Below are positions 1,161-58,677 of a stretch of 64,000 nt of DNA, in pieces. The translations under genes and the position numbers were made by a program. Below the pieces are notes generated by a model. It had not been told where the DNA came from and ran no database searches. It was given only the letters and a program-made list of their open reading frames with translations. This DNA comes from Bacteroidia bacterium (lineage in GTDB: Bacteria > Bacteroidota > Bacteroidia > 2-12-FULL-35-15): positions 3,999 to 67,998 of the forward strand of contig JAVHPE010000126.1 of NCBI GenBank assembly GCA_036170475.1, read 5' to 3'. Within the stretch, counting starts at the first letter, position 1, and each line of letters opens with the position of its first letter.

Positions 1161-3635
1161 ATGTTAAATCAAAATAAACACCAACAGTATTTTTCAACGG
1201 AAAAGGTTACTATCAGTAACAAAAAAAGGCTCAGAAAAAATGCCCTTATTTTATTTATCGCATTTTCATCTTTGACGACTTTCGCGCAAAAAAAAGCGAC
1301 AACTGAATCAGAACCTCAAACAGAGACCGATGTGGATATTACCGCCAAACTGATACTTGATGGAATAAATAAAATACGGACAGAAAATTATACTGATTCG
1401 CTTGAATTTAATGAAATGCTTGCAAAAGCCAGTACCATTCAGTCGGAGAATATGGCGGAAAAAGGAAAGGCTATTTTGGAGAACAGTAAAGGGAAATATA
1501 AAACTACAGCAAAACGTGTGATTGCTATGGGTGGGACTAAAAATGCGGAAGAGTTGGTTTTGTGTTTAGCAACTGTAAAAGATAAGAAACAATTATCGCC
1601 GGAAGAACTTGCTGAAGCGGCGATTTTAAAATGGAAAACGGGAAAAAAGGAGCAAATTATTATTAAAAATGGAAATTATGTGTATGCAAGTCCTACTGTT
1701 AAGCTTGATGAAACAGGTAAAAAAATGTATATCTCAGTAGTTTTTGGAAGTTTCAACACATTCAATCCTGGAGTTAAAAAAAGGAAAGAGTTGAAAGTTC
1801 GGTTCACTAAAAAAAATAAAAAAATAAAAACCTCGGAGGATAAGGAATGTAAAAATTGTGAAAAATTCAAAGATTATGAAGGTTTGATGAATGGATTGTA
1901 TTTAGAAAATGGAAAAATATTTTTTAAATATGATAACCTTAAAGCATTAACACAATTGATTTCAAAATCCGGAGATGGACTAGCTGTCGACATTATACAA
2001 CGTGCACAATATGAAAAACCTGATTATAATATCCTTAACAATAATTTATTGAGCAAAGGGGTGCTGACGAAAACTGTTACCCTGTCAAAAATGTTAAGTA
2101 AAAACCGAATCCAACCAGAAAAAAAAGGCGGAAAAGTTGCTAAGGTAGATGTACAAATAGGCAAACTCCCTAAAGGGCTTTTAACAGATAGTACTTATGA
2201 AATAAATTTACTTGTTGTTCAGAATGGGAAATTATGTAAAACATTGATACGATCCTACATCGAGCAAGGCGACCAAAACTCAACCACTACACTTAAAATG
2301 CTTTTGATGCCCGATAGCGTAGCGTATTTAAAACCCTTATTCTCGCCTAAATCAGATGATGCCTTATTGAATTTTACCCTTCCCTTTGAAAAAAATAAAT
2401 TTGAGTATAAAGAAGCGGATATCTTACCCTTCTTAAATGCCTTACAAGAACCAGACTTTATTATTAGCGGGCTTTATATTACCGCCTATTCATCCATTGA
2501 AGGAGATGCAGAATCGAATATAAAACTTCAAAAAAAACGTTCAGAAAGCATCATTAAAGCGTTGGCAAATCTTCAAAAGGATAGCGTTGTAACCACAATA
2601 AAAACAAACGATTCATGGTCGCTTTTTCAAATGAGTATGGAAGGCGGAAAATATGATACATTGACTAAAATGACTAAGGAACAAGCAATTCATGAAATTA
2701 ATACGAAACCCGGACTGTCCGATTCGCTAGAACCATATTTGGCGAAACAACGTTTTGGTGAAATAATTATGGATGTAACCTATGATATCAGTGGACCCAA
2801 GGAAAAAAAATTTTCAGTTAGTAAATTTAATCAGGCTGCAAAAAAAGGAGATATCAAACTAGCGTATAAAATTCAATACTATATTGGTAAACAAATTCGT
2901 GGAAAAAAATACACTCCTGATGCATTCACTAAAATGGAAATTCCTAATGATGCGAAATATTCAGGAGTACTGAATAATCAAGTGGTATTGCGTTATATGA
3001 ACAATAATTATGCGATTGAAGCTGAAGATAATAAAGAAATGAAAAAACTTTCCGCCCTTGACCCTGCAAACAATTACATAGCTTTTAATTCCATTTTATG
3101 TGCTATAAAGTTAGATTCTGCCATTGGTAATAAAAAAGAAATAGCAGCTATGCAAAATCGAATTGATGCGCTTTACAAAAGTGAATTACAAAAAAAATAT
3201 ATTGATGCATTAAATATAGAATGGCAGTTTAAAATTATTGACGCTATGGATACAGTAGTAGGTGCAGAGCCTATAATCCAAGCCTGCACAGAAAAAGTAA
3301 AATCGTTTTATAATTTGAAAGAAGCAACCTGGCAAAACAACTTAAAACTTTCCTACATATTTGCCCGCTTCAAAGATTATAAATTTGCATCCAACTTATT
3401 AGCCGACTTTATTAAACAGGATAAAACAAATGAACAAGTATTATTTGCATACATCTCCTATTGTGCCCAAATGCCTGAATTAATTAAGTCACGCATATTT
3501 GTAACTGCACTTGAAAAAGCGGAGAAAACTAACCACGAACGCTATTGTAAATTATTTGGAGAACCTTATTTATCTTTCCAGGTTTTTGATAATCCTTTTG
3601 TTAAAGAAGATTATATTAAATTGAAGTGCAACTAA
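1161..3635 (+). CDS. hypothetical Lys-rich secreted protein (824 aa) with an internal OmpA-like segment
   Basis: Long ORF with an N-terminal hydrophobic signal-like segment (ALILFIAFSSLTTFAQKK). An internal stretch, ITAYSSIEGDAESNIKLQKKRSESIIKAL, resembles the OmpA-domain core (GhTD..G....N..LS..RA..V). The C-terminal third is helical and repeat-like. Confidence 0.45.
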   Translation: MLNQNKHQQYFSTEKVTISNKKRLRKNALILFIAFSSLTTFAQKKATTESEPQTETDVDITAKLILDGINKIRTENYTDSLEFNEMLAKASTIQSENMAEKGKAILENSKGKYKTTAKRVIAMGGTKNAEELVLCLATVKDKKQLSPEELAEAAILKWKTGKKEQIIIKNGNYVYASPTVKLDETGKKMYISVVFGSFNTFNPGVKKRKELKVRFTKKNKKIKTSEDKECKNCEKFKDYEGLMNGLYLENGKIFFKYDNLKALTQLISKSGDGLAVDIIQRAQYEKPDYNILNNNLLSKGVLTKTVTLSKMLSKNRIQPEKKGGKVAKVDVQIGKLPKGLLTDSTYEINLLVVQNGKLCKTLIRSYIEQGDQNSTTTLKMLLMPDSVAYLKPLFSPKSDDALLNFTLPFEKNKFEYKEADILPFLNALQEPDFIISGLYITAYSSIEGDAESNIKLQKKRSESIIKALANLQKDSVVTTIKTNDSWSLFQMSMEGGKYDTLTKMTKEQAIHEINTKPGLSDSLEPYLAKQRFGEIIMDVTYDISGPKEKKFSVSKFNQAAKKGDIKLAYKIQYYIGKQIRGKKYTPDAFTKMEIPNDAKYSGVLNNQVVLRYMNNNYAIEAEDNKEMKKLSALDPANNYIAFNSILCAIKLDSAIGNKKEIAAMQNRIDALYKSELQKKYIDALNIEWQFKIIDAMDTVVGAEPIIQACTEKVKSFYNLKEATWQNNLKLSYIFARFKDYKFASNLLADFIKQDKTNEQVLFAYISYCAQMPELIKSRIFVTALEKAEKTNHERYCKLFGEPYLSFQVFDNPFVKEDYIKLKCN

Positions 3636-9780: not shown

Positions 9781-11049
9781 TTAATGATCATTTAATGGCA
9801 AACCTCTTTTCTGGTATTCAATCCAATTAAGATATTCATCCCCTTTCCGGTGTTCCACCATGGTAATACAATCATTTACCGGACAAACGATCTTACATAA
9901 ATTACAACCAACACATTCTTCTTCTTTAATTGTATAGGTGTTGTATGGAATTGCTCTTTCCACGGTAATTGCCTGATGAGATGTGTCTTCGCAGGAAATA
10001 TAACATAATCCGCAATGAATACATTTTTCCTGATCGATATTAGCTTCGATATGAAAATTGATGTCCAGCTCTTCCCATCTGGTAATTTTCGGAACGGATA
10101 AACCTATAAAATCATCGATACTTTTATAACCTCTTTCATCCATCCAGTTACTCATTCCATCACATAAGTCGGTAATAATTTTAAATCCATAAATCATTGC
10201 AGCGGTACAAACCTGCACATTACTTGAACCCAGGAGCATAAACTCTACCGCATCTTTCCAGGTGGTTATGCCACCAATACCGGAAATAGGGATATTCCGT
10301 AATTTAGCTTCCTGAGCAAGTGTTGTTACCATTTTCAAAGCAATTGGTTTTACAGCAGGACCACAATATCCACCAAAAACAGACTGTCCACCTACATTTG
10401 GATTTGGAACAAGTGTACCTAAATCAATTCCGGTAACGGATTGTATTGTATTAATTAGTGAAAGTCCATTTGTGCCACCTTCAAAAGCAGCAATTGCACC
10501 GGGAACGGCAGAATGAACATTGGGGGTAAGTTTTGTAATTACAGGAATTGATGCAACTTCCATTACCCATTCAACAACCATTTTTGCAATTTCAGGATCT
10601 TGTCCAACAGCAGCACCCATCCCTCTTTCAACCATTCCATGCGGACATCCGAAATTTAATTCTAATCCGTGAGCACCGGTATCCTGGGCTTTCTTAACCA
10701 GTTCATGCCAGCTTTTTCTGTCGTTATCAGCCATCAACGAAACAATCATAGCACGGTCTGGAAACAGTTTTATCACTTCTTTAATTTCTTTCAGATTTAT
10801 TGCAAGTGGCCGATCCGAAATAAGTTCTATATTATTAAAACCTACTGCTTTTCTTCCGTTATAGCTAAGTGCAGAATATCTTGATGACACATTTTTAACC
10901 TGGGAGCCAAGTGTTTTCCATACTACTCCGCCCCACCCTGCCTCAAATGCACGTAGAACATTTGTTTTTTTATCAGTTGGAGGAGCTGACGCTAACCAAA
11001 AAGGATTGGGCGATTTTATGCCTAGAAAGTTTGATTGTAAATTTGCCAT
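9781..11049 (-). CDS. preA: NAD-dependent dihydropyrimidine dehydrogenase subunit PreA (DHOD-like TIM barrel plus 2x[4Fe-4S] ferredoxin)
   Basis: FLGIKSPNPFWLASAPPT...GWGGVVWKTLG...NFGCPHGM is the DHPD/DHOD fold. The C-terminus CIHCGLCYISCEDTSHQ...CVGCNLCKIVCP has two 4Fe-4S motifs. Confidence 0.85.
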   Translation of the reverse strand: MANLQSNFLGIKSPNPFWLASAPPTDKKTNVLRAFEAGWGGVVWKTLGSQVKNVSSRYSALSYNGRKAVGFNNIELISDRPLAINLKEIKEVIKLFPDRAMIVSLMADNDRKSWHELVKKAQDTGAHGLELNFGCPHGMVERGMGAAVGQDPEIAKMVVEWVMEVASIPVITKLTPNVHSAVPGAIAAFEGGTNGLSLINTIQSVTGIDLGTLVPNPNVGGQSVFGGYCGPAVKPIALKMVTTLAQEAKLRNIPISGIGGITTWKDAVEFMLLGSSNVQVCTAAMIYGFKIITDLCDGMSNWMDERGYKSIDDFIGLSVPKITRWEELDINFHIEANIDQEKCIHCGLCYISCEDTSHQAITVERAIPYNTYTIKEEECVGCNLCKIVCPVNDCITMVEHRKGDEYLNWIEYQKRGLPLNDH

Positions 11050-11141
11050 GTTTTTATTATTTGAAAATTTGTTAATGTGCTAATTTAAAAATTAATATAA
11101 ATCTGATTAAATTCGTGTCGGAAGACAAGCCGAACAGCAAA

Positions 11142-13688
11142 TTATTTCTTAATAAATTTTCTTGATACTATTCCTTTTGAAGTAGCAATTCTTATCATAT
11201 ATATTCCGGGCTTAATATTTCTGATGTCAATACTATTTTTTGCAATCTGTGAATCCAATATCTTTTCACCCATCACATTAAAAATTTCTATCTTATTTTT
11301 TTCAAAATTTGCAAATTGTAAACCTGAAATGGTTAATTGATCATCTGCAGGATTTGGATAGATAAAAACAGCATTATTTTTGCCTGGTTCATTAATACTG
11401 GTAATTGAACTCAGATCCGATTCCCAGATCCCTCTTCCATAAGTGGCTGCCCTTAATTTACCTGCGGAGTATTGAATTTCCAGTTCATTAATAATTACAT
11501 TTGGCAAACCTGTGTTATAATAGGACCAATCACTCATAGAACTGTTTTTGTAATAAACGCCAAAATCCGTTCCAATGTAGAGTCCATCAATACTTCCGTT
11601 TTGGTAAACAATACAATTTACAGGAATATTTGGAAGCGTACCTGAAACATTTATCCATGTTAATCCACCGTCAATTGAATTATAAACCTTGTCACCGTTT
11701 GAGTATCCGGATAACGTTATCCAAACATTATCAGGGTCTGCAGAATTAATTGCAATGCCAGTAATTGCAGCATTATTAACGGGTAGATTTTGAGTAATCG
11801 TATTCCAACTTGTTCCTCCATTGATAGTTCTGAAAATATTTCCAAAGCTGGCAACGTATATATAATCCGTATTGGAAGGAGCAATGGCAACAGAATTCAA
11901 AGTAGCGCCACCATCAATATTGTTTGAAATTGCATTCCATGAATCTCCACCATCATCAGATTTGTAAACATCCTGGTATCCTGCAAAAAGGATTTGAGGG
12001 TTTGTCGGATGCATTACCATAGGAGTAACCCATGCACCAGTAACTCCTGGAGGAGTAATGTCTAAGGAGAAGGTAGTTCCACCATCTGTGGATTTTATAA
12101 AATCTCCTTCGTAAACAGAGGCATAAACAATATAACTGTCAGTATAATCAATAAAACATTCCATTCCGTCACCTTTAAACACATTATCAGAATAAATTCC
12201 ATAGATACGGTCGGTACCATTATCCTGTGCCCCTCCATAAATAAGATTCGGATCAAGTGCTGAACAACCAATGCGATAATATTGTTTTATATCCAATCCA
12301 TTACTTAAATCATACCAGCTAGTTCCCCCGTCCATAGTTTTAAAAATCCCACCATCATTACATGAAAATATAGTAGAACCATCCCCACCTGGCAAAAAAG
12401 TAATAAAATGGTTATCGGCATGTACATAATCTGTTGCATTCCAAGGATACCATTCTGATGTAGTATTCCAAGTGCTTCCACCATCCGCGCTTTTAGCAAG
12501 AATCACTCCCCCTAAATAAATCACATTTTCATCCAGAGGAGAAACTGCAAACGCCCTACCATAATAATCCAAATCAGTCACTAAAGCACTCGGAGAACTG
12601 CCAATATTCCAGGACGCTCCACAGTCTGTTGATTTGTAAAAATCTCCTCCGGTGCACCATAAATAAATAACATTTGAATTGGCGGGAGTAACTTCAATAG
12701 AAGCTCTTCCACCAGCGCAAAAGGTTGCGGAAAGAAGAAACCATGTGACTCCACCATCATTTGATCGATAAAGTCCTCCGTAACTGGATGCAAAAACAAT
12801 ATTTGGATTTGCTGTATTAAATTCAAGATCGTAAAAATCTCCGACCTGCACATTCGTCAATGTTATGGCTGCGTCACTTGATCTGTAAATACCTGTATTT
12901 GTTGCAACAATTAGTATATTTGGATTTACAGGATTAATAATTACTCTTTGAATCAAGTTACTCTGGGCTTGTGTATAATTTAAAGTGGTAGGACTCCAGG
13001 ATGTTCCCCCATCAATTGACTTCATAAGTCCAGCCCTATAATTACCACCAAAGAAACCCGGTATTCCACCCCAAAAACCATATTTATCTCCAGTAGCAAT
13101 GTACATAATATTAGTATTAAGGGGATTAATTATAATTTCAGAAATACTCAAAGCGGGAAGCAGATCCGTATTGGAAGACCATGTGTTACCACCATCAGTA
13201 GATTTCCAAAGTCCTCCGCATACTGAACCAATAAATAATGTGCTGGAATTATTTGGATCGAAGGCCATACAATTAATTCGTCCGGCACCACCACCTCCAC
13301 CGGGAACAATTTGCGGACCTAAAAATGTCCAGTTTGCAGACCTTTCTCCCAAAGATTTTTCAGTTGAATGTTCCGCTTTATATTTGAAATATTCTTTAAC
13401 AAGAATTTCGGGATCAGAAAAATTTCCTGAAGGATAAACACGTTGTTCTGTAAACCACTCCCAACGCTTAAATTGCTGCCATTCACCATCTTTATCCTTT
13501 CCTTTTTTATCTATTACGTTAGCAGATTTTTTTTTCCAATATTCATTGAATATTTTTTGAATATCATAAAAATTTGGTTTGGTGTTGATAATGGAATCGG
13601 TTCCGGCCTTCTTTAGCCATGATTGTGCATTTATTGAAGAAACTGAAACAATAAATGAAAAAAGGATACAAAATAAAGATTTTTTCAT
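11142..13688 (-). CDS. BNR/Asp-box repeat beta-propeller protein (GH74/sialidase-like) with T9SS C-terminal sorting domain
   Basis: Signal peptide present. At least eight S-x-D-G-G-x-T/S-W repeats (STDGGNTW, SIDGGTSW, SNDGGVTW, STDCGASW, SADGGSTW, TMDGGTSW, STDGGTTF, SDDGGDSW, TINGGTSW, SIDGGLTW). The C-terminus FIYPNPADDQLTI...GIYMIRIATSKGIVSRKFIKK is a Por/T9SS CTD. Confidence 0.75.
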   Translation of the reverse strand: MKKSLFCILFSFIVSVSSINAQSWLKKAGTDSIINTKPNFYDIQKIFNEYWKKKSANVIDKKGKDKDGEWQQFKRWEWFTEQRVYPSGNFSDPEILVKEYFKYKAEHSTEKSLGERSANWTFLGPQIVPGGGGGAGRINCMAFDPNNSSTLFIGSVCGGLWKSTDGGNTWSSNTDLLPALSISEIIINPLNTNIMYIATGDKYGFWGGIPGFFGGNYRAGLMKSIDGGTSWSPTTLNYTQAQSNLIQRVIINPVNPNILIVATNTGIYRSSDAAITLTNVQVGDFYDLEFNTANPNIVFASSYGGLYRSNDGGVTWFLLSATFCAGGRASIEVTPANSNVIYLWCTGGDFYKSTDCGASWNIGSSPSALVTDLDYYGRAFAVSPLDENVIYLGGVILAKSADGGSTWNTTSEWYPWNATDYVHADNHFITFLPGGDGSTIFSCNDGGIFKTMDGGTSWYDLSNGLDIKQYYRIGCSALDPNLIYGGAQDNGTDRIYGIYSDNVFKGDGMECFIDYTDSYIVYASVYEGDFIKSTDGGTTFSLDITPPGVTGAWVTPMVMHPTNPQILFAGYQDVYKSDDGGDSWNAISNNIDGGATLNSVAIAPSNTDYIYVASFGNIFRTINGGTSWNTITQNLPVNNAAITGIAINSADPDNVWITLSGYSNGDKVYNSIDGGLTWINVSGTLPNIPVNCIVYQNGSIDGLYIGTDFGVYYKNSSMSDWSYYNTGLPNVIINELEIQYSAGKLRAATYGRGIWESDLSSITSINEPGKNNAVFIYPNPADDQLTISGLQFANFEKNKIEIFNVMGEKILDSQIAKNSIDIRNIKPGIYMIRIATSKGIVSRKFIKK

Positions 13689-13719
13689 GTTTAAGAATGC
13701 TATACATTACTAAAAAATA

Positions 13720-14209
13720 TTTCCCGCAGATTTCGCAAATTTTCGCAGATTTTTTTCTTGGTTAACCCGTTCTATCTATTTGAGATATTTGTAAATTATT
13801 TACTTTCCTATAAATTGAATTTGAAATATTATCGGTATTGAAATTTACTAGTATTCCTAGCTTTTTACCAGACAATTTCAAGTAAGTTAATACTTGTTTG
13901 TGATGTACATCTGCAATTTGTTCTACAGATTTTATTTCAATAATAACTAAATCATTTACTATAATATCTATTCTAAAACCAATATCTAATTTTTCACTTT
14001 CATAAATTACAGGTAAGGCAACTTGTGATCTGACCTCCAGTCCTTTCTTTTTCAATTCGAACATTAAGACCGCTTCATAAACTGATTCCAACAGGCCTGG
14101 CCCAAGTGAATTGTAAACTTTAAAAATAGCACCTCTTATAATGTAAGAAATTTCATTTTCTATCATTTTCTTAATTTTTTCCGCGTAAATCCGTGAAATC
14201 TGCGGGAAA
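13720..14209. mobile_element. inverted-repeat-bounded GxxExxY gene cassette
   Basis: TTTCCCGCAGATTTC at 13720-13734 and its exact reverse complement at 14195-14209 flank the GxxExxY ORF. Confidence 0.5.
13762..14166 (-). CDS. GxxExxY protein (PD-(D/E)XK nuclease-like)
   Basis: 134 aa. GPGLLESVYEAVLMFELKKKGLEV...IDIIVNDLVIIEIKSVE is the canonical GxxExxY family signature. Confidence 0.85.
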   Translation of the reverse strand: MIENEISYIIRGAIFKVYNSLGPGLLESVYEAVLMFELKKKGLEVRSQVALPVIYESEKLDIGFRIDIIVNDLVIIEIKSVEQIADVHHKQVLTYLKLSGKKLGILVNFNTDNISNSIYRKVNNLQISQIDRTG

Positions 14210-15541
14210 CAAATATTCTAAAATCCCTTTTGCTCCATCTTTTCCAGCCTGAACAGCATCCACAACTTCTTTGCCTCCATTTACGGAATCTCCACCGGCA
14301 AAAACTCCTTTCAAATTGGTTTCAGATTTTTCATTGATAGAAATTTTTCCATTTTTATTTTGTACGGACGATTTATTCAGAAGTTCTTCGAATGGCATCT
14401 GTCCTGCAGCTTTAATCACCATATCTACATCAATAGTAAATGTTTCACCCGTATCAACAGGAGCTCTTCTGCCCGAAGCATCAGGATCACCAAGCTTCAT
14501 TTTGTTGCAAACCAATTTTTTTACGTTGCCATTTTCACCAATAATTTCTTTAGGACTAGCTAACCAAATAAATGAACAACCATCAAGTTTCGCTAAATCA
14601 AGTTCCACATCGGTACATGGTTTTTCATTTTCTGTTCTACGGTAAATCATCGTTACTTCTCTTGATCCAAGGCGTTTTGATTGTGTTGCGGCATCAATGG
14701 CAGTCATTCCCATGCCTATAACAGCCACCTTATCTCCAACGGCTGTTGAAGAATAATCATTCGTACGAAGGTCATAAACAAATGAAATAGCATCTACAAC
14801 ACCTTCTAATTTTTCACCCGGAATATCTAATGAACGTGCAATTCCAACGCCTATTCCTAAAAATACCGCGTCATATTTTTTTTGAAGATCCGCAAGTATA
14901 ATGTCCTTCCCTAACTCTTTATTATATTGAACATTAATGCCTCCAATAGAAAGAATATAATCCACTTCATTTTTACAAAACTCAGGAGTAACCTTGTAAG
15001 CTGCCACTCCATAGGTCATTAAGCCACCGCCCTTTTTTTCTTTTTCAAAAATTGTAACATCCACACCTTGCAGAGAAAGTGCGTGTGCACAAGCTAATCC
15101 GGCAGGACCGGCGCCAACAACCGCTGCTTTTTTTCCATTAGAATGATTACGTTCAAAAAGTTTCCATTTTTCCTGAATCGCTTTTTCAGTAACATATCGT
15201 TGAAGTTTAGAGATGGCTATTGGTTTTTCTTCGAGCAAATTAAATACACAAATTCCTTCACACAACTTTTCTACAGGGCAAACTTTTGAGCATCCTCCAC
15301 CCATAATATTGGAAGTAAAAATGGTTTTTGCTGAACCTTTAATATTCCCGGAAGAAATTTGTTTTATGAATAATGGAACGTCAATACTTGTAGGACATAA
15401 TTTAGTGCATGGTGCATCATAACAATTAATACACCTGTCGGCTTCAATCATAGCACCTTCAGCATGTTCAAAAGGGGGATGAACGTCAGAAAAATTTTCT
15501 ATTAAAACTTCTTTTGATAAACGATTGTTTTTGATTGACAT
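14171..15541 (-). CDS. preT: NAD-dependent dihydropyrimidine dehydrogenase subunit PreT (GltD-like)
   Basis: N-terminal Cys cluster CINCYDAPCTKLCP, then Rossmann motifs AAVVGAGPAGLACA and KVAVIGMGMTAIDAA. This is the glutamate-synthase small-subunit-like fold, with preA nearby. Confidence 0.85.
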   Translation of the reverse strand: MSIKNNRLSKEVLIENFSDVHPPFEHAEGAMIEADRCINCYDAPCTKLCPTSIDVPLFIKQISSGNIKGSAKTIFTSNIMGGGCSKVCPVEKLCEGICVFNLLEEKPIAISKLQRYVTEKAIQEKWKLFERNHSNGKKAAVVGAGPAGLACAHALSLQGVDVTIFEKEKKGGGLMTYGVAAYKVTPEFCKNEVDYILSIGGINVQYNKELGKDIILADLQKKYDAVFLGIGVGIARSLDIPGEKLEGVVDAISFVYDLRTNDYSSTAVGDKVAVIGMGMTAIDAATQSKRLGSREVTMIYRRTENEKPCTDVELDLAKLDGCSFIWLASPKEIIGENGNVKKLVCNKMKLGDPDASGRRAPVDTGETFTIDVDMVIKAAGQMPFEELLNKSSVQNKNGKISINEKSETNLKGVFAGGDSVNGGKEVVDAVQAGKDGAKGILEYLFPADFTDLRGKN

Positions 15542-17213: not shown

Positions 17214-17361
17214 GTGGTTTAGTTTAGAGTTAAAAGTTTAGAGTTAAGAGTTTTTGTTTTGTGTTAAAAAAGTTTTGAGCTATATAGTTTTGAGTTAAAA
17301 GTGTAAATAGTTTTGAGTTAAAAGTTTAGAGTTATGAGTTTTTGTAGTGTGTTAAAAAAGT
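17214..17361. repeat. tandem duplication (about 45-bp units) at the left end of the four-helix-bundle cassette
   Basis: AGTTTAGAGTTAAGAGTTTTTGTTTTGTGTTAAAAAAGTTTTGAGC, then AGTTTAGAGTTATGAGTTTTTGTAGTGTGTTAAAAAAGTTTAGAGTT, with extra GAGTTAAAAGT units. Confidence 0.6.
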
Positions 17362-17752
17362 TTAGAGTTGTTTTGTTAAATATTTTTCTTTTGTTGTAAG
17401 TATAATACTGCTCAGAATTTTCATAAGTTCATTGCAATTATTTATTAAATTAATGTATTCTTCTTTATCTATGAAACCACTATCCGAAAGTAAATTAAGC
17501 CAATATGCCGTTTCTCTTGCTTCTTTTAATGAGATACTCATTTTGTGAATAAAATCTCTTTTTGATTCCCCTGCTAAAGCTTCGTTAATATTGGCTCCTA
17601 TGGAAGTGCCAGAACGTAAAACTTGTTTTGATAAAATAAATTCTCTCTTTTCAGACGATAAATTTTTGTAAAGTTTAATTATTAATAACGCAAAAGCATA
17701 AGATTTCCTTCCAACAATACTATCATTCTGTTTTAATAAACTCATAACTCTA
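17327..17752. mobile_element. inverted-repeat-bounded four-helix-bundle gene cassette
   Basis: TAGAGTTATGAGTTT at 17327-17341 and its exact reverse complement AAACTCATAACTCTA at 17738-17752. The ORF start codon lies inside the right arm. Confidence 0.5.
17362..17745 (-). CDS. four-helix-bundle protein (TIGR02436 / 23S rRNA intervening-sequence protein family)
   Basis: 127 aa. LSKQVLRSGTSIGANINEALAGESKRDFIHKMSISLKEARETAYWL is the family signature. Confidence 0.8.
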   Translation of the reverse strand: MSLLKQNDSIVGRKSYAFALLIIKLYKNLSSEKREFILSKQVLRSGTSIGANINEALAGESKRDFIHKMSISLKEARETAYWLNLLSDSGFIDKEEYINLINNCNELMKILSSIILTTKEKYLTKQL

Positions 17753-17763
17753 CTCTCTTAATT

Positions 17764-19143
17764 TTAAACTAAAGTAAATTTATTTCTTCTGATAAATTTA
17801 CCATATCCTTTTTCGACAAGTAATTTATTATCATCCACAGCTACATTACCTCTCAGGATTATTGTTTTGCATTTACCTGTTAATTGCCATCCTTCATAAC
17901 CGGAATAATCACAATTCATATGATGAGTTTTTGCAGAAATGGTATGCTTTTCATTCGGATCTAAAATTACTATATCAGCATCAGAACCTACAGCAATAGT
18001 ACCTTTCTGAGGATACATTCCAAATATTTTGGCTGCATTTGTGGAACTTACCTCAACAAATTTGTTCAGACTGATTTTATTTTTAATTACTCCTTCGGAG
18101 AATAATAATTCCATCCTGTTTTCAATTCCCGGAGCCCCATTCGGGATTTTTGTGAAATCGGTTGAACCCGCTTTCTTTTGTTCCCATGTGAATGGGCAAT
18201 GATCTGTCGCAACCACTTGCACAGTTCCCTGATTGATTCCTGCCCATAGACTTGTCTGATCTTTTTTCTCCCGTATCGGTGGACTCATCACCCATTTTGC
18301 AGATTCAAACCCTTTGTCATAAACAGAAGCATCGAGGACCAAATATTGAATACAGGTTTCAACAAAAATTTTCTGATTTCTTTTAGCAGCATCTCGGATG
18401 TGATTAAGCGCATCCTCGCTGGTCAGGTGTACAACATAAGATGGGACTCCTGTATGATACGCCATATCAGAAAAACGGCTTGTGGCTTCGCTTTCAGTAA
18501 TTTCGGGCTGAGATAAATAATGAAACAGAGGAGAAAGTTTCCCTTCCGATTTATGCTTCGCTACTAAGTAATCAATCATATCGCCATTGGTAGCATGAGT
18601 AGTTAATAATCCACCCTGTTTTTTTACTTCATGCATCAAGCCAATCATTTGCTTATCGTCAATCATTAAAGCACCTTTATAAGCCATGAATGTTTTGAAA
18701 GAAGTAATACCCTCTTTTTCAATCATGTCTTTTATTTCAGATCTGATTTCTTCATTAAAATCTGTTACGGACATGTGAAAAGAATAATCTCCAACAGCAT
18801 TTCCATCAGCACGACCCTTCCATTCATTTAATGCTGCGTATAAGGATTTCCCTTGTTTTTGGATCACAAAATCTATTACCATGGTAGTTCCTCCAAAAAG
18901 GGCTGCACGTGTTCCCGTTTCGTAATTATCACTGGAATAAGTCCCCATGAAGGGCATATCCAGATGAACATGAGGATCGATACCACCGGGTATTACCAAT
19001 TTGTTTTTTGCATCTATAACTATGTCCGCATTAACTGAAAGGTTGAGACCGATAAGTTTTACTTTTTCCTTTTCAATATAAATATCTGCAACATAATCAT
19101 CAGCAGCAGTTATAACTCTCCCATTTTTTATTAGAATTGACAT
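17764..19143 (-). CDS. dihydropyrimidinase / D-hydantoinase (cyclic amidohydrolase)
   Basis: ILIKNGRVITA...VIPGGIDPHVHLDMPFMGT...FKTFMAYKGALM, with metal-binding H-x-H, a carbamylated-Lys region and VVATDHCPF. Start set at MSILIKNG. Confidence 0.85.
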   Translation of the reverse strand: MSILIKNGRVITAADDYVADIYIEKEKVKLIGLNLSVNADIVIDAKNKLVIPGGIDPHVHLDMPFMGTYSSDNYETGTRAALFGGTTMVIDFVIQKQGKSLYAALNEWKGRADGNAVGDYSFHMSVTDFNEEIRSEIKDMIEKEGITSFKTFMAYKGALMIDDKQMIGLMHEVKKQGGLLTTHATNGDMIDYLVAKHKSEGKLSPLFHYLSQPEITESEATSRFSDMAYHTGVPSYVVHLTSEDALNHIRDAAKRNQKIFVETCIQYLVLDASVYDKGFESAKWVMSPPIREKKDQTSLWAGINQGTVQVVATDHCPFTWEQKKAGSTDFTKIPNGAPGIENRMELLFSEGVIKNKISLNKFVEVSSTNAAKIFGMYPQKGTIAVGSDADIVILDPNEKHTISAKTHHMNCDYSGYEGWQLTGKCKTIILRGNVAVDDNKLLVEKGYGKFIRRNKFTLV

Positions 19144-19310: not shown

Positions 19311-21035
19311 ATGTTTGAAATAGGTACAGGAATAAGCGATATCACTGCTTTTAAGAAAGGCGTTGGAATGATGGGTTATGGGATGTACTTCAACACCGTT
19401 GAAGAAGTTGAGACGCCACTTTCCGCAAGGGCTTTTGTAGTTAAAAATTCGGAAACACAGAAAAAAATAGTATTTGTGAATACTGAACTATGTTTCATTT
19501 CTATTTCGGTCAAATACGGTGTTGTTGAAACACTAAAAGAAAAATACCCTCAATTTGGTTACACATCAGATAATGTGATATTGACAGCACAACACACACA
19601 CAGTGCTCCAGGAGGATTTACGCATTATGCGTTTTATAATTTAACCATTCCGGGATTTGTACCGGAAGTTTATCAAACTATTATCAAGGGTATCGTAGAG
19701 GCTATCGTGCAAGCAGAATCAAGTATTCAGCAGGGGAATATTTATTTGAACACAGGTATTTTTGAATCTCAACATGAAGTTGCATTCAACCGATCGATAA
19801 AGGCTTATAACTGCAATCCTGAGGTTACAAAAATTGATGAAAACAAAACACATCTTGCTGTGGACAGAGAAATGACTTTATTACGGATGGAAGGGTTAAA
19901 TGGAAAAAAAATTGGAATGCTCAATTGGTTCGGAGTACATGCGACAAATATTCCAAGCAACAATCATAAAATCTGTAATGATAACAAGGGTTATGCCTCT
20001 ACTTATTTTGAAGAAGATGTTCGATCCTCCGGAGAGCAAAAAAATTTCTTAGCGATATTTGCGCAAGGTTCCTGCGGTGATGTAAGTCCGAATTTCGTGT
20101 GGGACAAGAGAAAAAAACGCACCCATGGAAAATTTGAAAATGCTTTTGAAAGTGCCAAATACAATGGAAAATTACAATACACCAAGGCAAAGGAAATTTA
20201 TGAAACAGCACTAAACAATCAACCTTTAAAGAGTGAGATTGATTATGCTTTGATGTATGCTGATTTTTCAAACATTAATCCTGACAAAGAATTTACTAAT
20301 GGGCAAGATGTGAAAACAGGGGCAGCTTGTCATGGAGTTGCCTTCTTTGAAGGGACAGCTGAAGGTCCTGGGATGAGTGATGCACTTGGATCAGTTTCAC
20401 GTTTTGTATCTCGTGCGGTTAAAAAATATGAATATACAAAAGCGATTTTTCTATCTGCCGAGGAACGAAAAAAAATTCATGATAAATATAAAATTCAAGG
20501 AAAAAAAGATATCTTTTTTGAAACAGGAGATCGAAAAGTGCTGGGGACATCCGATATAAAAAATATGATAATTCCTTCCTGGATTGATAAAGGGATAAGT
20601 ACTTTCAAAGAACAGCACAGGAACGGCTCCCTCAATAAACCATGGATTCCGGAAATTTTACCTCTGCAAATCATTGTCATTGGAGAATTGGCTATTGCAG
20701 CTTTCCCCGCAGAAATTACTACCGTTGCCGGATGGCGGCTGAGAGACACTATCCTCAATATTTTGAAAAAAAGAGGGATTACAAAAGTTATTGTTTCTCC
20801 TTATGCAAATGCCTACTGTGGTTATGTTACTACCTATGAAGAATACCAATGTCAATGTTATGAAGGCGGTCACACAGTTTTTGGCGAGTGGACATTAGCC
20901 GCATTTCAAACTAAGTATAAACAGTTAGCCTTGCAACTGCTTGAAAAACCCGAGAATCGTACGATAGATAAAAATATTGCACCTATTAAATTTACCAAGG
21001 AAGAGTTAGATAAGAGAAGTTTTTCGGAAGTGTAA
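19311..21035 (+). CDS. neutral/alkaline ceramidase family protein
   Basis: Contains the neutral-ceramidase hexapeptide GDVSPN (IFAQGSCGDVSPNF), together with VILTAQHTHSAPGG and a C-terminal tail domain. Start taken at MFEIGTG. My position count in this block differs by 1 nt from the ORF table, so the start is given to within 1 nt. Confidence 0.75.
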   Translation: MFEIGTGISDITAFKKGVGMMGYGMYFNTVEEVETPLSARAFVVKNSETQKKIVFVNTELCFISISVKYGVVETLKEKYPQFGYTSDNVILTAQHTHSAPGGFTHYAFYNLTIPGFVPEVYQTIIKGIVEAIVQAESSIQQGNIYLNTGIFESQHEVAFNRSIKAYNCNPEVTKIDENKTHLAVDREMTLLRMEGLNGKKIGMLNWFGVHATNIPSNNHKICNDNKGYASTYFEEDVRSSGEQKNFLAIFAQGSCGDVSPNFVWDKRKKRTHGKFENAFESAKYNGKLQYTKAKEIYETALNNQPLKSEIDYALMYADFSNINPDKEFTNGQDVKTGAACHGVAFFEGTAEGPGMSDALGSVSRFVSRAVKKYEYTKAIFLSAEERKKIHDKYKIQGKKDIFFETGDRKVLGTSDIKNMIIPSWIDKGISTFKEQHRNGSLNKPWIPEILPLQIIVIGELAIAAFPAEITTVAGWRLRDTILNILKKRGITKVIVSPYANAYCGYVTTYEEYQCQCYEGGHTVFGEWTLAAFQTKYKQLALQLLEKPENRTIDKNIAPIKFTKEELDKRSFSEV

Positions 21036-21042
21036 GTATCCT

Positions 21043-21130
21043 CTGACAGGGTTTCAAACCCTGTTAGAGGTATTTAACGAGTTACGAAATCCGAACAAAA
21101 CCCCTAACAGGGTTTGGAACCCTGTCAGGG
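21043..21130. repeat. REP-like palindromic repeat, family 2, copy 1
   Basis: CTGACAGGGTTTCAAACCCTGTTAG ... CTAACAGGGTTTGGAACCCTGTCAG: two inverted hairpins (CAGGG-tttcaaa-CCCTG) separated by about 45 nt. Second copy at 56003-56090. Confidence 0.7.
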
Positions 21131-45639: not shown

Positions 45640-46119
45640 GTCCCCCTTGTGAGTTGGACTGTGGGATTGCGAAGGGGGCAGGGGGATGAAAATCTGTTAT
45701 TCATGAACAACCATTACAATAAAAAGTTAAAATCCTTCGCTCAAAGCAATAGAAATTTTTCAACTAAAGCGGAAATAAGAATTTGGTGTGAATTATTGAG
45801 AAATAAAAAAATGTTAGGGTTCCCGTTTTTACGTCAACGACCAATTGAGAATTATATAGCTGATTTTATGTGTAAAGAACTAAATTTGATAATTGAAATT
45901 GATGGCTATTCTCATCAATTCAAATATGAGGAAGATATTGAAAGAGATGACAGACTAAAACAATTGGGATTTCATGTTCTGCGTTTTACAGATGACGAAA
46001 TAACAAAACATATTACAAATGTTGAACGTGCTATTATTCAATGGATAGATAATAAAGAAAAACAATTTCATCCCCCTGCCCCCTTCACTGACGCACATTC
46101 AATCACACAAGGGGGACAA
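45640..46119. mobile_element. DUF559 endonuclease gene bounded by about 49-bp imperfect terminal inverted repeats
   Basis: Left GTCCCCCTTGTGAG-n17-GAAGGGGGCAGGGGGATG at 45640-45688. Right (reverse complement) GTCCCCCTTGTGTG-n17-GAAGGGGGCAGGGGGATG at 46069-46119. Confidence 0.55.
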
Positions 46120-46131
46120 AAAAACAGATAA
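45703..46131 (+). CDS. DUF559 (Vsr-like) endonuclease domain protein
   Basis: NRNFSTKAEIRIWCELLRNKKMLGFPFLRQRPIENYIADFMCKELNLIIEIDGYSH...RDDRLKQLGFHVLRF is the DUF559 signature. Start set at MNNHY. Confidence 0.8.
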   Translation: MNNHYNKKLKSFAQSNRNFSTKAEIRIWCELLRNKKMLGFPFLRQRPIENYIADFMCKELNLIIEIDGYSHQFKYEEDIERDDRLKQLGFHVLRFTDDEITKHITNVERAIIQWIDNKEKQFHPPAPFTDAHSITQGGQKNR

Positions 46132-54900: not shown

Positions 54901-54972
54901 GATTTTGTGTGTTGTTGGGGGATGTTTTTTTTGATTCGTAAATTCGTTATAATACCATTTATTAATATATAT

Positions 54973-55066
54973 TAGTCCAATCTAAAAAAACAACCCGCTT
55001 TCTCGACTTCGCTCGAAATGGCCCGTGCGAAGTCGAGAAAGCGGGTGGCATAACTGAATTGGACTA
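54973..55066. repeat. large nested palindrome
   Basis: Outer arms TAGTCCAAT / ATTGGACTA. Inner perfect 19-bp arms CCCGCTTTCTCGACTTCGC / GCGAAGTCGAGAAAGCGGG around a 14-nt loop. Confidence 0.7.
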
Positions 55067-55114
55067 TTTTATAAGTATAATTGGTATAATTCATTATCCA
55101 AAACCAAAAATATT

Positions 55115-56002: not shown

Positions 56003-56090
56003 CCTGCCAGGGTTTCAAACCCTGTTAGGGTTAGAGTTAGGGTTAGGGTTTAAAAGTTCTGTTTCAATCTGACAGGGTGTTTGAAAGTTT
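56003..56090. repeat. REP-like palindromic repeat, family 2, copy 2, with embedded TTAGGG-like triplet
   Basis: CCAGGGTTTCAAACCCTGTTAGGGTTAGAGTTAGGGTTAGGGTTT...CTGACAGGGTGTTTGAAAG. The second hairpin is degenerate. Confidence 0.65.
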
Positions 56091-57610: not shown

Positions 57611-57885
57611 ATATTTCTTTATTTGAAACAAATGTATGATTTTTTTATTTTACCATGCAGGTAACAAGCCTTGGGTGTACGACAAATATCCCTAACTATT
57701 TTTATTCCAAACCATACGGCAATGTCATTGAGTTATGGAACTTTCAAACATAAATGTCTCCCCAAGGTCTTCTACAGGCTTTGACTGAGTGCGCTAGGTC
57801 AGTCTGATTAAACAATTAAAAAAATTTAAAGCTCTTTGAAAATGACACAAAAAATTTTAAAATTACAGCAAACAAAAAGCATTTT

Positions 57886-58232: not shown

Positions 58233-58677
58233 AATTATGAGATTAGGGAAATTTGTCGTACACCCCAAGCCTTTGAACAGAAAATCTTAACGATAAGCCG
58301 GCATTTTAAAATAAAATTCATCTCAAATTTAATGAAACATTAAAACTTATTTTTCGTAGAATGTGTTCTAAAAAATTAACATCATTTAACAAAAAATGAT
58401 TGTATATGTTAAAATAAATGGTATATTGCGTAACGGTATTACATATTATCTTAAACAATCCCACAATAGTGGAGGATCAACTATAATATCCCATCAAAAT
58501 AAAAAAGTTTTTGCGAATTTTTTACTGATTAACAACAATAAGTGAGACAAAGAGATTGGAAATAATCTTTGATGATTGTCTATTATTCTTCTTTTTTAAT
58601 TTATTATTTTTTTACTAATCTGAATATAAACTGTGGGCTCATCTATAAAGCATACCGACTCTTAACTCAACCATATT

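Follow-up and report, generated by a model that had tools for sequence, protein, structure and literature searches.

In a 64,000-nt stretch of DNA from a Bacteroidia bacterium (GenBank assembly GCA_036170475.1, contig JAVHPE010000126.1, positions 3,999 to 67,998; hereafter the window), a small gene encoding a GxxExxY / PDDEXK_3 protein lies between two inverted repeats at 13720-14209, in the gap between the preT and preA genes of a pyrimidine-catabolism operon. Comparison with relatives gives good support to the view that this unit is an insertion and that it belongs to a conserved cassette family. Our preferred reading, to which we assign a probability of about 55%, is that it is a selfish, repeat-bounded cassette, that its Cas4-like nuclease recognises its own arms, which are built of short iterons, and that its gene is read through from the host operon.

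The cassette is bounded by two 30-nt arms

A preliminary description of the window, made from the letters alone, had reported a perfect 15-bp inverted repeat around the GxxExxY open reading frame (ORF). This repeat was confirmed: the 15-mer TTTCCCGCAGATTTC is found at 13720-13734 on the plus strand, and 14195-14209 matches its reverse complement exactly; the 64-kb window contains no other copy of either. The inverted repeat is longer than 15 nt, however, and extends over 30 nt with 83% complementarity (13720-13749 / 14180-14209). The upstream, gene-proximal arm (14180-14209, minus strand) reads TTTCCCGCAGATTTCACGGATTTACGCGGA on the gene strand and contains three iterons, CCGCAGA, CACGGA, and CGCGGA, at a spacing of about 10 nt. 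The downstream arm (13720-13749, minus strand) reads TTTCCCGCAGATTTCGCAAATTTTCGCAGA on the plus strand, its CCCGC end pointing away from the gene. The cargo gene at 13762-14166 (minus strand, 134 aa) was assigned by profile matches and invariant catalytic residues.

The upstream arm also covers the final codons of the preT-like gene (14171-15541, minus strand), which encodes the small subunit of dihydropyrimidine dehydrogenase. The last 12 codons, FPADFTDLRGKN, derive from the arm and give PreT the tail FPADFTDLR, so that the protein ends in ...GILEYLFPADFTDLRGKN in place of the canonical GIK or GL*. On the other side, 31 nt separate the end of the downstream arm from the ATG of a gene for a protein with a type IX secretion system (T9SS) tail. 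A scan of 13400-14500 for promoters and terminators yielded nothing above background. Rfam gave no match to the arms or the cassette, neither at gathering thresholds in the whole window nor in 13500-14400, where only noise was obtained at E ≤10.

The 15-bp repeat might be a chance match in AT-rich DNA, to which we give practically no credence. It is true that the 15-mer with up to three mismatches is no more common in the window than in shuffled sequence. However, the window has 4 loci with perfect inverted repeats of 15 nt or longer at a spacing of 100-800 nt, compared with 0.26 expected under a first-order Markov model (200 resamplings), and the same arms stand beside homologous genes in about 70 other genomes. 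At three of the four loci, the repeats bracket single small genes, namely the GxxExxY gene, a four-helix-bundle gene, and a DUF559 gene.

The preT|preA gap is empty, occupied, or scarred in relatives

The preliminary description regarded the layout as that of an insertion and not of vertical operon structure, and the state of the gap in relatives bore this out. A metagenome scan with the PreT C-terminus retrieved 80 operons, in which the gene order was dihydropyrimidinase, beta-ureidopropionase, (MaoC), preT, preA. The preT|preA gap was generally short and comprised 5 nt in the empty loci L096 and L098. One GxxExxY gene was present in this gap in 14 loci and one four-helix-bundle gene in 10. 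The gap between the dihydropyrimidinase and beta-ureidopropionase genes contained a four-helix-bundle gene in 8 loci (one cut by a contig end) and a GxxExxY gene in 1, and two more cassettes were located directly upstream of preT. All cassettes (35 of 35) were on the operon strand, i.e., in sense orientation.

The ends of the PreT proteins told the same story. Cassette-free relatives ended canonically in ...YLGIK*, ...GL*, or ...KLC*, and the FPADF end was not found in them. Eight PreT homologues, in contrast, ended in a translated arm (FPADFAD, FPADSADNRRKN, SLADNADTRR, and similar), as had been proposed for the PreT of the window. The relatives thus include empty sites. No target-site duplication was seen.

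The arms could be grouped by their iteron cores into class A (CGCAGA), class B (CGCAAAG), class C (CACGAAT), and class D (CACGGAT). Other relatives have gene-less remnants in the preT|preA gap: doublets were seen in L092 (class A, degenerate) and L091 (class D), a minimal hairpin of class C in L101, and an arm of the four-helix-bundle type in L094. Even among the closest relatives (PreT 88-92% identical in L011, L012, L172, and L173), occupancy varied: a class A cassette was present in the window, L011, and L012 (and also in L182), a four-helix-bundle cassette in L173, and an 83-nt scar in L172. One and the same gap was therefore empty, occupied by either of two genes, or scarred.

Two further loci are worth recording. 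At L172 2056-2274, in the dihydropyrimidinase|beta-ureidopropionase gap, a PDDEXK_3 fragment of 72 aa, whose reading frame is disrupted, lies between CGCAGATTACGCTGAT and ATCAGCGTCATCAGCG arms; it appears to be a decaying cassette, and the window has its four-helix-bundle cassette at the same place. At L130 ~3166-3535, four tandem units of about 105 nt, each starting with the four-helix-bundle-type arm TTTTAAATTTTGAATTATATATTTTGAATTC, precede the four-helix-bundle gene in the preT|preA gap.

The copy of the window is old and was modified later

The five best GxxExxY matches (L011-L015) and L182 are positional orthologues: each occupies the preT|preA gap, with preA directly after it. Because these orthologues share the position, the cassette is older than the divergence of the window, L011-L015, and L182, and its inheritance has been vertical. 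The number of synonymous substitutions per site (dS) was at least 1.2 for all orthologue pairs except L011/L012 (0.69), and the ratio of nonsynonymous to synonymous substitutions (dN/dS) was 0.05-0.11. The arms have kept their consensus despite this divergence. Arm sequences are therefore conserved among copies at the nucleotide level, and this across orders and phyla, although dS is saturated.

The arm-encoded end of PreT is secondary. In L011 and L013, PreT retains the end ...YLGL* and the arm begins 7-12 nt past the stop codon, whereas about 19 nt are lacking there in the window and in L182; a later deletion of about 19 nt thus put the arm in frame. In L014 (~90-240; a metagenome-assembled genome (MAG) of Ferruginibacter), a segment of about 75 nt that comprises the preT 3'-end and the F arm is duplicated in tandem; it precedes the orthologous cassette.

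The usual direct downstream partner of preT is preA (9781-11049, minus strand; NF006183, E 7e-196). The cassette had been described as separating the two genes, and this held in part: it does sit between them, but most of the distance is due to the gene at 11142-13688 (minus strand), which encodes an 848-aa T9SS-tailed protein of the BNR/sortilin type. This gene was absent from all relatives examined, and the spacer upstream of preA (11050-11141, minus strand) still has the segment AAATTAGCACATTAaCAAATT in common with the gene-less gap of L172. The T9SS gene is a separate, later, and lineage-specific insertion between the cassette and preA. The segment AAATTAGCACATTAaCAAATT resembles a degenerate right arm of the four-helix-bundle cassette, and the T9SS insertion raises the question of whether cassette arms can be landing sites for other DNA.

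The arms accompany the GxxExxY gene across the Bacteroidota and beyond

If the repeat were confined to this locus, other GxxExxY genes would lack it. A scan of one genome per species yielded 80 loci with relatives of 62-86% identity, from Flavobacteriales, Cytophagales, Chitinophagales, Sphingobacteriales, and Bacteroidales as well as one Chlorobiaceae MAG. In nearly all of them, the arm sequence of the window adjoins the GxxExxY ORF, so that it stands beside this gene in dozens of genomes, and cognate repeats flank the gene in about 70 loci of other genomes. The 18.5 kb located within 120 nt of the ORFs contained 253 copies of the motif CGCAGAT, compared with 95 copies in the 385 kb at distances above 400 nt, which is a 55-fold enrichment (81 loci). 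Genuine distant matches were mostly within about 1.3 kb of the gene. The consensus arm, TTTCCCGCAGATnnCGCnGATnnnCGCAGA, has 30 nt and three iterons about 10 nt apart.

The most common layout was F|R, as in the window, with the CCCGC ends outward on both sides, and was found in 14 of the 81 loci. The others included every orientation, hairpin doublets, tandem arrays, direct R|R repeats, and a one-sided arm. The upstream ORF typically ends 3-12 nt ahead of the arm core, and in the 80 genome loci, the neighbours were co-oriented with the cassette gene in 57 of 64 cases upstream and 63 of 72 downstream. In these loci and in the operon set, the cassettes lie within a few nucleotides of stop codons, between co-transcribed conserved genes, and in sense orientation.

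Two GxxExxY loci have unusual repeats. On a Bacteroidales chromosome (L070 1732-2991), 11.3 tandem copies of a 113-nt unit are located directly upstream of the GxxExxY gene. The unit consists of an F arm with CGCAGA, an R arm with TCAGCG, and a 47-nt spacer, and pairing of these arms would leave an A-A mismatch in every iteron. In Algoriphagus halophilus (L084 3001-4045), three overlapping GxxExxY matches 329 nt apart suggest that most of the gene has been duplicated in tandem.

The motif and not the pairing of the arms is conserved

Inverted repeats in a transcribed region might act in the RNA. The cassette could be an RNA-level element similar to an rRNA intervening sequence, in which the arms pair, host RNase III cuts the resulting stem, the RNA of the cassette is set free, the flanking cistrons are separated, and the protein ignores the arms. 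For the window such a stem is indeed predicted: the arms close the terminal stem of the sense transcript (minimum free energy -124.6 kcal/mol, z = -6.0), and the duplex of the arms is stronger in sense than in antisense (-67.1 versus -43.1). Terminal inverted repeats and a predicted stem around a small sense-oriented ORF are traits of rRNA intervening sequences as well. The strict sense orientation of the cassettes in the operon set agrees with this explanation, and the four-helix-bundle family of the neighbouring cassette is that of the ORF of 23S rRNA intervening sequences, in which RNase III cuts a stem formed by inverted repeats and tandem heptamers precede the ATG (PMC4990558).

However, several results make this explanation unlikely. 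Across the 80 loci, no G-U-dependent bias towards RNA pairing was found, the sense strand being better in 38 and the antisense strand in 42. The arms of one locus were not more alike than those of different loci (23.9 versus 22.6 of 36 positions), and they pair barely better with each other than with arms from elsewhere. Loci with R|R arms or a one-sided arm cannot form the stem at all, and pairing alone would not keep the iteron sequence across phyla at saturated dS. Although the arms of the window pair well, the comparisons of arm likeness and of sense with antisense strands rule out selection for RNA pairing as a general rule. Because arms of one locus are no more alike and a sense bias is absent, the conserved feature of the arms is the motif and not the pairing; and because the arm sequence is constrained while pairing is not, each arm is probably read sequence-specifically. 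As for a location within rRNA, Rfam detected no rRNA in the window, and the cassette adjoins preT and a protein-coding gene and does not lie within a 23S rRNA helix. No conserved rRNA motif was present in any GxxExxY locus fetched, which is a weak test, as these loci had been chosen for other purposes.

Protein clades go with iteron classes, also in other phyla

The pyrimidine-catabolism operons of relatives also contain distant GxxExxY genes (34-52% identical), and these have different iteron arms: TTTCACGCAAAGaCGCAAAG... in class B, TTGCCACGAATGCACGAAT... in class C, and CACACGGATGACACGG... in class D. Proteins that share an arm class were 68-78% identical, compared with 30-48% for those of different classes. 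Copies from other phyla followed the same rule. In Sphingomonas (CGCGAAGG), a copy between fabD and fabG has 25-nt arms, TTCACGCGAAGGCGCGAGGACGCGA, with 92% complementarity, and its protein is nearest to classes A/B. The protein of a Treponema copy with CACACGGAT arms is nearest to classes C/D, and that of a Gemmatirosa copy, which has a perfect 32-nt inverted repeat with three CGCAGAGG iterons, is nearest to class A. Proteins from other phyla are thus nearest to the classes with the matching iteron core, and each protein clade is paired with its own iteron type across phyla.

Gemmatirosa kalamazoonensis also has the arms without the gene. Matches to the cassette sequence numbered at least 33 on one replicon of about 1 Mb and at least 31 on a second replicon of this size. 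Two 50-kb samples contained near-identical palindromes of about 85 nt with the structure FFFRRR, i.e., GAACCGCAGAGGACGCAGAGGGCCGCAGAGGA, a loop, and the reverse complement. Such palindromes are present to either side of the gene and, at other places, by themselves. Nesting was observed on plasmid 1 (L187 5501-5641 and 18239-18398), where a palindrome of CACGGAGG iterons lies within the loop of a CGCAGAGG palindrome. The gene-bearing cassette can be seen as the same palindrome with a gene in its loop, and the relation of the two forms is parallel to that of a full-length transposon to a miniature inverted-repeat transposable element (MITE), or of a gene for a REP-associated tyrosine transposase (RAYT; REP, repetitive extragenic palindrome) to a REPIN, the doublet of such repeats. 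A GxxExxY copy at L187 23793-24184 is apparently frameshifted. End-repeats that match in unrelated bacteria, together with their gene-less occurrence, point to widespread selfish DNA for which we found no published description.

The cargo protein is a predicted nuclease

The protein matched TIGR04256 (GxxExxY) with an E-value of 1e-41 (141.6 bits, cut-off 35, residues 5-120) and PF13366 (PDDEXK_3) with 4e-41 (140.6 bits, cut-off 22). In 33 homologues, E27 (in the GxxExxY motif), D67, E77, K79, and Y95 were invariant; Y95 is the invariant residue of the QxxxY position, which is present in the protein. The AlphaFold2 model (mean predicted local distance difference test score 86.7) shows a minimal PD-(D/E)XK core of the alpha-beta-beta-beta-alpha-beta type, with the E...D...ExK residues of the active site. 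Its top fold matches were Cas4 SSO0001 (4ic1, template modelling (TM) score 0.55), lambda exonuclease, and CinB (TM range 0.45-0.55), a PDB sequence search gave no match, and a profile of Cas4 was weakly similar (E ~3e-3). On the basis of this model, the protein is a predicted nuclease of the PD-(D/E)XK superfamily, in the Cas4/RecB/lambda-exonuclease branch. Cas4 proper was rejected as an identification: none of the 134 residues is a cysteine, so the Fe-S cysteines are absent, and the neighbours are pyrimidine-catabolism genes.

The family is large, with 17,383 clusters at 50% identity (E ≤1e-3). PDDEXK_3 is listed as a family of unknown function (PMC3424549). A full-text literature search, which did not cover subscription journals and database comment fields, found nothing that links GxxExxY or PDDEXK_3 to flanking repeats or to mobility, and a search for the arm sequences solely returned unrelated primer matches. 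The PDDEXK_3 protein is the only ORF between the repeats, and no recognised transposase (DDE, HUH, serine, or tyrosine) is encoded there. With no recognised transposase and no target-site duplication seen, the unit does not conform to a classical inverted-repeat insertion sequence or transposon.

A small nuclease gene between conserved genes could also be a free-standing homing endonuclease gene. It would cut cassette-free alleles of the gap in resident or incoming DNA and be copied in by homologous recombination through the conserved flanks, the arms serving only expression or insulation. PD-(D/E)XK and Vsr-like folds are known among homing endonucleases, and I-Bth0305I was among the weak fold matches of our model. 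The genes on either side of the sites are highly conserved (preT|preA, dihydropyrimidinase|beta-ureidopropionase, fabD|fabG, and M16 peptidase genes), and empty, occupied, decayed (the 72-aa fragment of L172), and scar states are those of a homing cycle. Nevertheless, we consider homing improbable. Proteins of 70-86% identity at many unrelated sites are a poor fit to site-specific target recognition, conserved terminal repeats and dispersed gene-less repeats are not normal for homing genes, and a dN/dS of about 0.06 in a fixed vertical copy would be unusual for one.

A gene that has persisted vertically at one locus for a long time, under strong purifying selection, would instead suit a domesticated accessory of the operon, beneficial to the host in nucleic-acid processing or defence and no longer mobile, with regulatory or insulating repeats. 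In line with this, identical proteins occur in one context only, and few members of the family are found on plasmids (8 of 72,556 records) or viral contigs (1 locus in 2.9 million). However, the same gap is empty or filled with unrelated cassettes in close relatives, the host contexts are functionally unrelated, the defence-system models of PADLOC found nothing beyond the weak similarity to Cas4, and the gene-less palindromes of Gemmatirosa are dispersed and nested. We give domestication slightly lower odds than homing.

A proposed selfish cassette recognised by its own nuclease

The mechanism that we infer for the selfish cassette is as follows. A promoter-less gene for a nuclease of about 125 aa would occupy the loop of a palindrome with two 30-nt arms, and would be expressed by read-through from the host operon. 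The arms would be cis-acting sites, most likely read by a multimer of the encoded nuclease, in analogy to the REP/REPIN repeats of RAYT proteins. Action of the nuclease at the arms, either directly or via break-induced recombination, would cause cassettes and gene-less arm pairs to be gained, lost, and replaced. In the transcript, the arms can in addition pair, and the resulting stem is similar to that of rRNA intervening sequences. The copy of the window is an old, vertically inherited insertion at the preT stop codon, its arm having been fused to preT by the later deletion of about 19 nt.

Several points weigh against this reading. The predicted binding and cutting of the arms by the protein rests on sequence association, and we know of no precedent for a Cas4-like domain of 125 aa as a transposase. 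In 13 simple F|R cassettes, there was no target-site duplication outside the arms beyond an A/T-rich context. Signs of recent transposition were sought as identical proteins in differing contexts, and none were found for three proteins: the exact protein of the window and two other family members each occur in a single genomic context. Near-identical sequences at several sites are known for the gene-less arm pairs of Gemmatirosa; gene-bearing copies with identical proteins each stay in one context. No gene-less arm copies are present within the 64-kb window. The orientation of the arms varies, with the commonest pattern in just 14 of 81 loci, and the clade-specific arms could be due to simple co-inheritance. 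The four-helix-bundle cassettes have the same design and encode no nuclease. Lastly, the strong purifying selection on the vertically inherited copy could reflect a benefit to the host rather than selfishness.

Further cassettes and repeats in the window

Two further single-gene cassettes of the same design had been announced for the window, and both were recovered. The second (17308-17771, minus strand) lies between the dihydropyrimidinase and beta-ureidopropionase-like genes and contains a four-helix-bundle gene (ORF 17362-17745; TIGR02436 / PF05635, the '23S rRNA intervening sequence protein' family). Its arms have 34 nt, 82% complementarity, and heptamers of the AGAGTTA type. Downstream of the gene, about 150 nt of AACTCTAAAC / AACTCAAAAC arm units (17215-17360) were found, compared with a single upstream arm (17738-17771). 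The same four-helix-bundle cassette is present in the same gap in L173. The third cassette (45640-46117, plus strand; ORF within 45649-46131) encodes a DUF559 protein, a Vsr-like endonuclease, between G/C-rich arms of 59 nt with 80% complementarity (GTCCCCCTTGTG...GGGGGCAGGGGGATGAAA). The right arm encodes the C-terminal tail of the DUF559 ORF, and a DUF1456 gene starts directly past the stop codon.

We also noticed three further repeats. A 28-nt inverted repeat with 89% complementarity and a perfect 15-mer core (57668-57695 / 58243-58270) encloses 547 nt with several G/C-rich local hairpins but no convincing ORF and no match in Rfam (best E 0.7). This region may be what is left of a cassette after decay, or a novel structured RNA. 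The palindrome CAGGGTTTCAAACCCTG at 21047-21063, 21108-21124, and 56008-56024 gives 6 matches over both strands, compared with 0.01 expected. Two of its copies form a 32-nt hairpin pair after an ORF that ends at 21035, and it looks like a separate REP-like repeat family. At 54949-55090, a palindrome with 67-nt arms (76% complementary) contains the strong G/C hairpin AACCCGCTTTCTCGACTTCGC...GCGAAGTCGAGAAAGCGGGT within AT-rich inverted flanks.

The shared design suggests a broader idea, which we put forward tentatively and with somewhat less than even confidence: GxxExxY, DUF559, and four-helix-bundle genes may be cargos of one overlooked class of elements, iteron-armed palindromes with one promoter-less gene in the loop and with gene-less, REPIN-like copies. 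Elements of such a class would settle in sense orientation directly after stop codons, between conserved genes that are transcribed together, but also within rRNA; the classical intervening sequences of 23S rRNA would then be a special case, namely those members that inserted there. As a repeat-associated nuclease that reads its own iterons, GxxExxY would be the PD-(D/E)XK counterpart of RAYT transposases, a second protein-repeat partnership for study that is unrelated to RAYT/REPIN, and the origin of rRNA intervening sequences would gain a concrete comparative framework. If GxxExxY genes are carried as cargo by repeat-bounded cassettes, thousands of 'hypothetical' genes and repeat-encoded tails (FPADF..., FHAKTQR..., ATNARI...) would share one explanation. 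The pairing of clades with iterons would be a directly testable recognition code. For annotation, the arms matter because they falsely lengthen neighbouring and cargo ORFs at the C- or N-terminus and interrupt operons whose genes adjoin each other in other genomes.

Comparison with known systems

Integron cassettes are also promoter-less, co-oriented single-ORF units with imperfect inverted repeats and an upstream promoter. In contrast to them, the cassettes described here have no attC-type single 3' site and no platform, and they are scattered in ordinary operons and not arrayed at attI. The examined parts of the window showed no integrase, although the window was not scanned systematically for integrases.

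MITEs and their parent transposons, such as Correia/NEMIS of Neisseria, share with the cassettes the terminal inverted repeats around a gene-bearing form, short gene-less forms, co-transcription with neighbours, and nested insertions. They differ in that no recognised transposase and no target-site duplication were detected here and in that gene-bearing copies do not appear to be near-identical and multi-copy. Homing genes (phage T4 seg/mob, the PD-(D/E)XK enzyme I-Ssp6803I, and the Vsr-like I-Bth0305I) are likewise small nuclease genes between conserved genes, with presence or absence among related genomes and decayed copies. Terminal repeats common to unrelated sites, gene-less derivatives, and long-term purifying selection set the cassettes apart from them.

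REPIN/RAYT systems and 23S rRNA intervening sequences are the nearest precedents. The REPIN/RAYT system is similar in several respects: a small gene is flanked by its associated repeats, gene-less doublets are dispersed (here in Gemmatirosa) or form tandem arrays, repeat types are specific to protein clades, and inheritance is vertical over long times under strong purifying selection. However, RAYT is an HUH/Y1 (IS200-like) transposase and the cassette protein belongs to PD-(D/E)XK, PDDEXK_3; the repeat there is a short GTAG-tagged hairpin and here a 30-nt arm with three iterons. Moreover, in many genomes, including that of the window, the repeats described here are found almost only beside the gene, and several copies of the cassette gene per genome appear to be common. 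CGTC-tagged REPs, which are without a known transposase (PMC3733652), were also considered and set aside, as their stems of 8-9 bp and loops of 4-5 nt are unlike the cassette arms.

The 23S rRNA intervening sequences have a length of about 430 nt, a sense four-helix-bundle ORF, and inverted-repeat arms with tandem heptamers, and they are excised by RNase III (PMC4990558). They are located in rRNA helices, whereas the cassettes occupy gaps of protein-coding operons, carry a nuclease gene in the case of the GxxExxY unit, and have conserved the sequence and not the pairing of their arms. In other respects the intervening sequences (Leptospira, Coxiella, Xanthomonas; S23p ORF) and the cassettes are much alike: both have about 430-490 nt with one small sense ORF and inverted repeats made of short tandem repeats (GACAGAT three times in Coxiella), and both occur sporadically in very conserved transcribed DNA and are regarded as selfish. 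In the window, the likeness extends to the cargo itself, as the second cassette encodes exactly the protein family of these intervening sequences.

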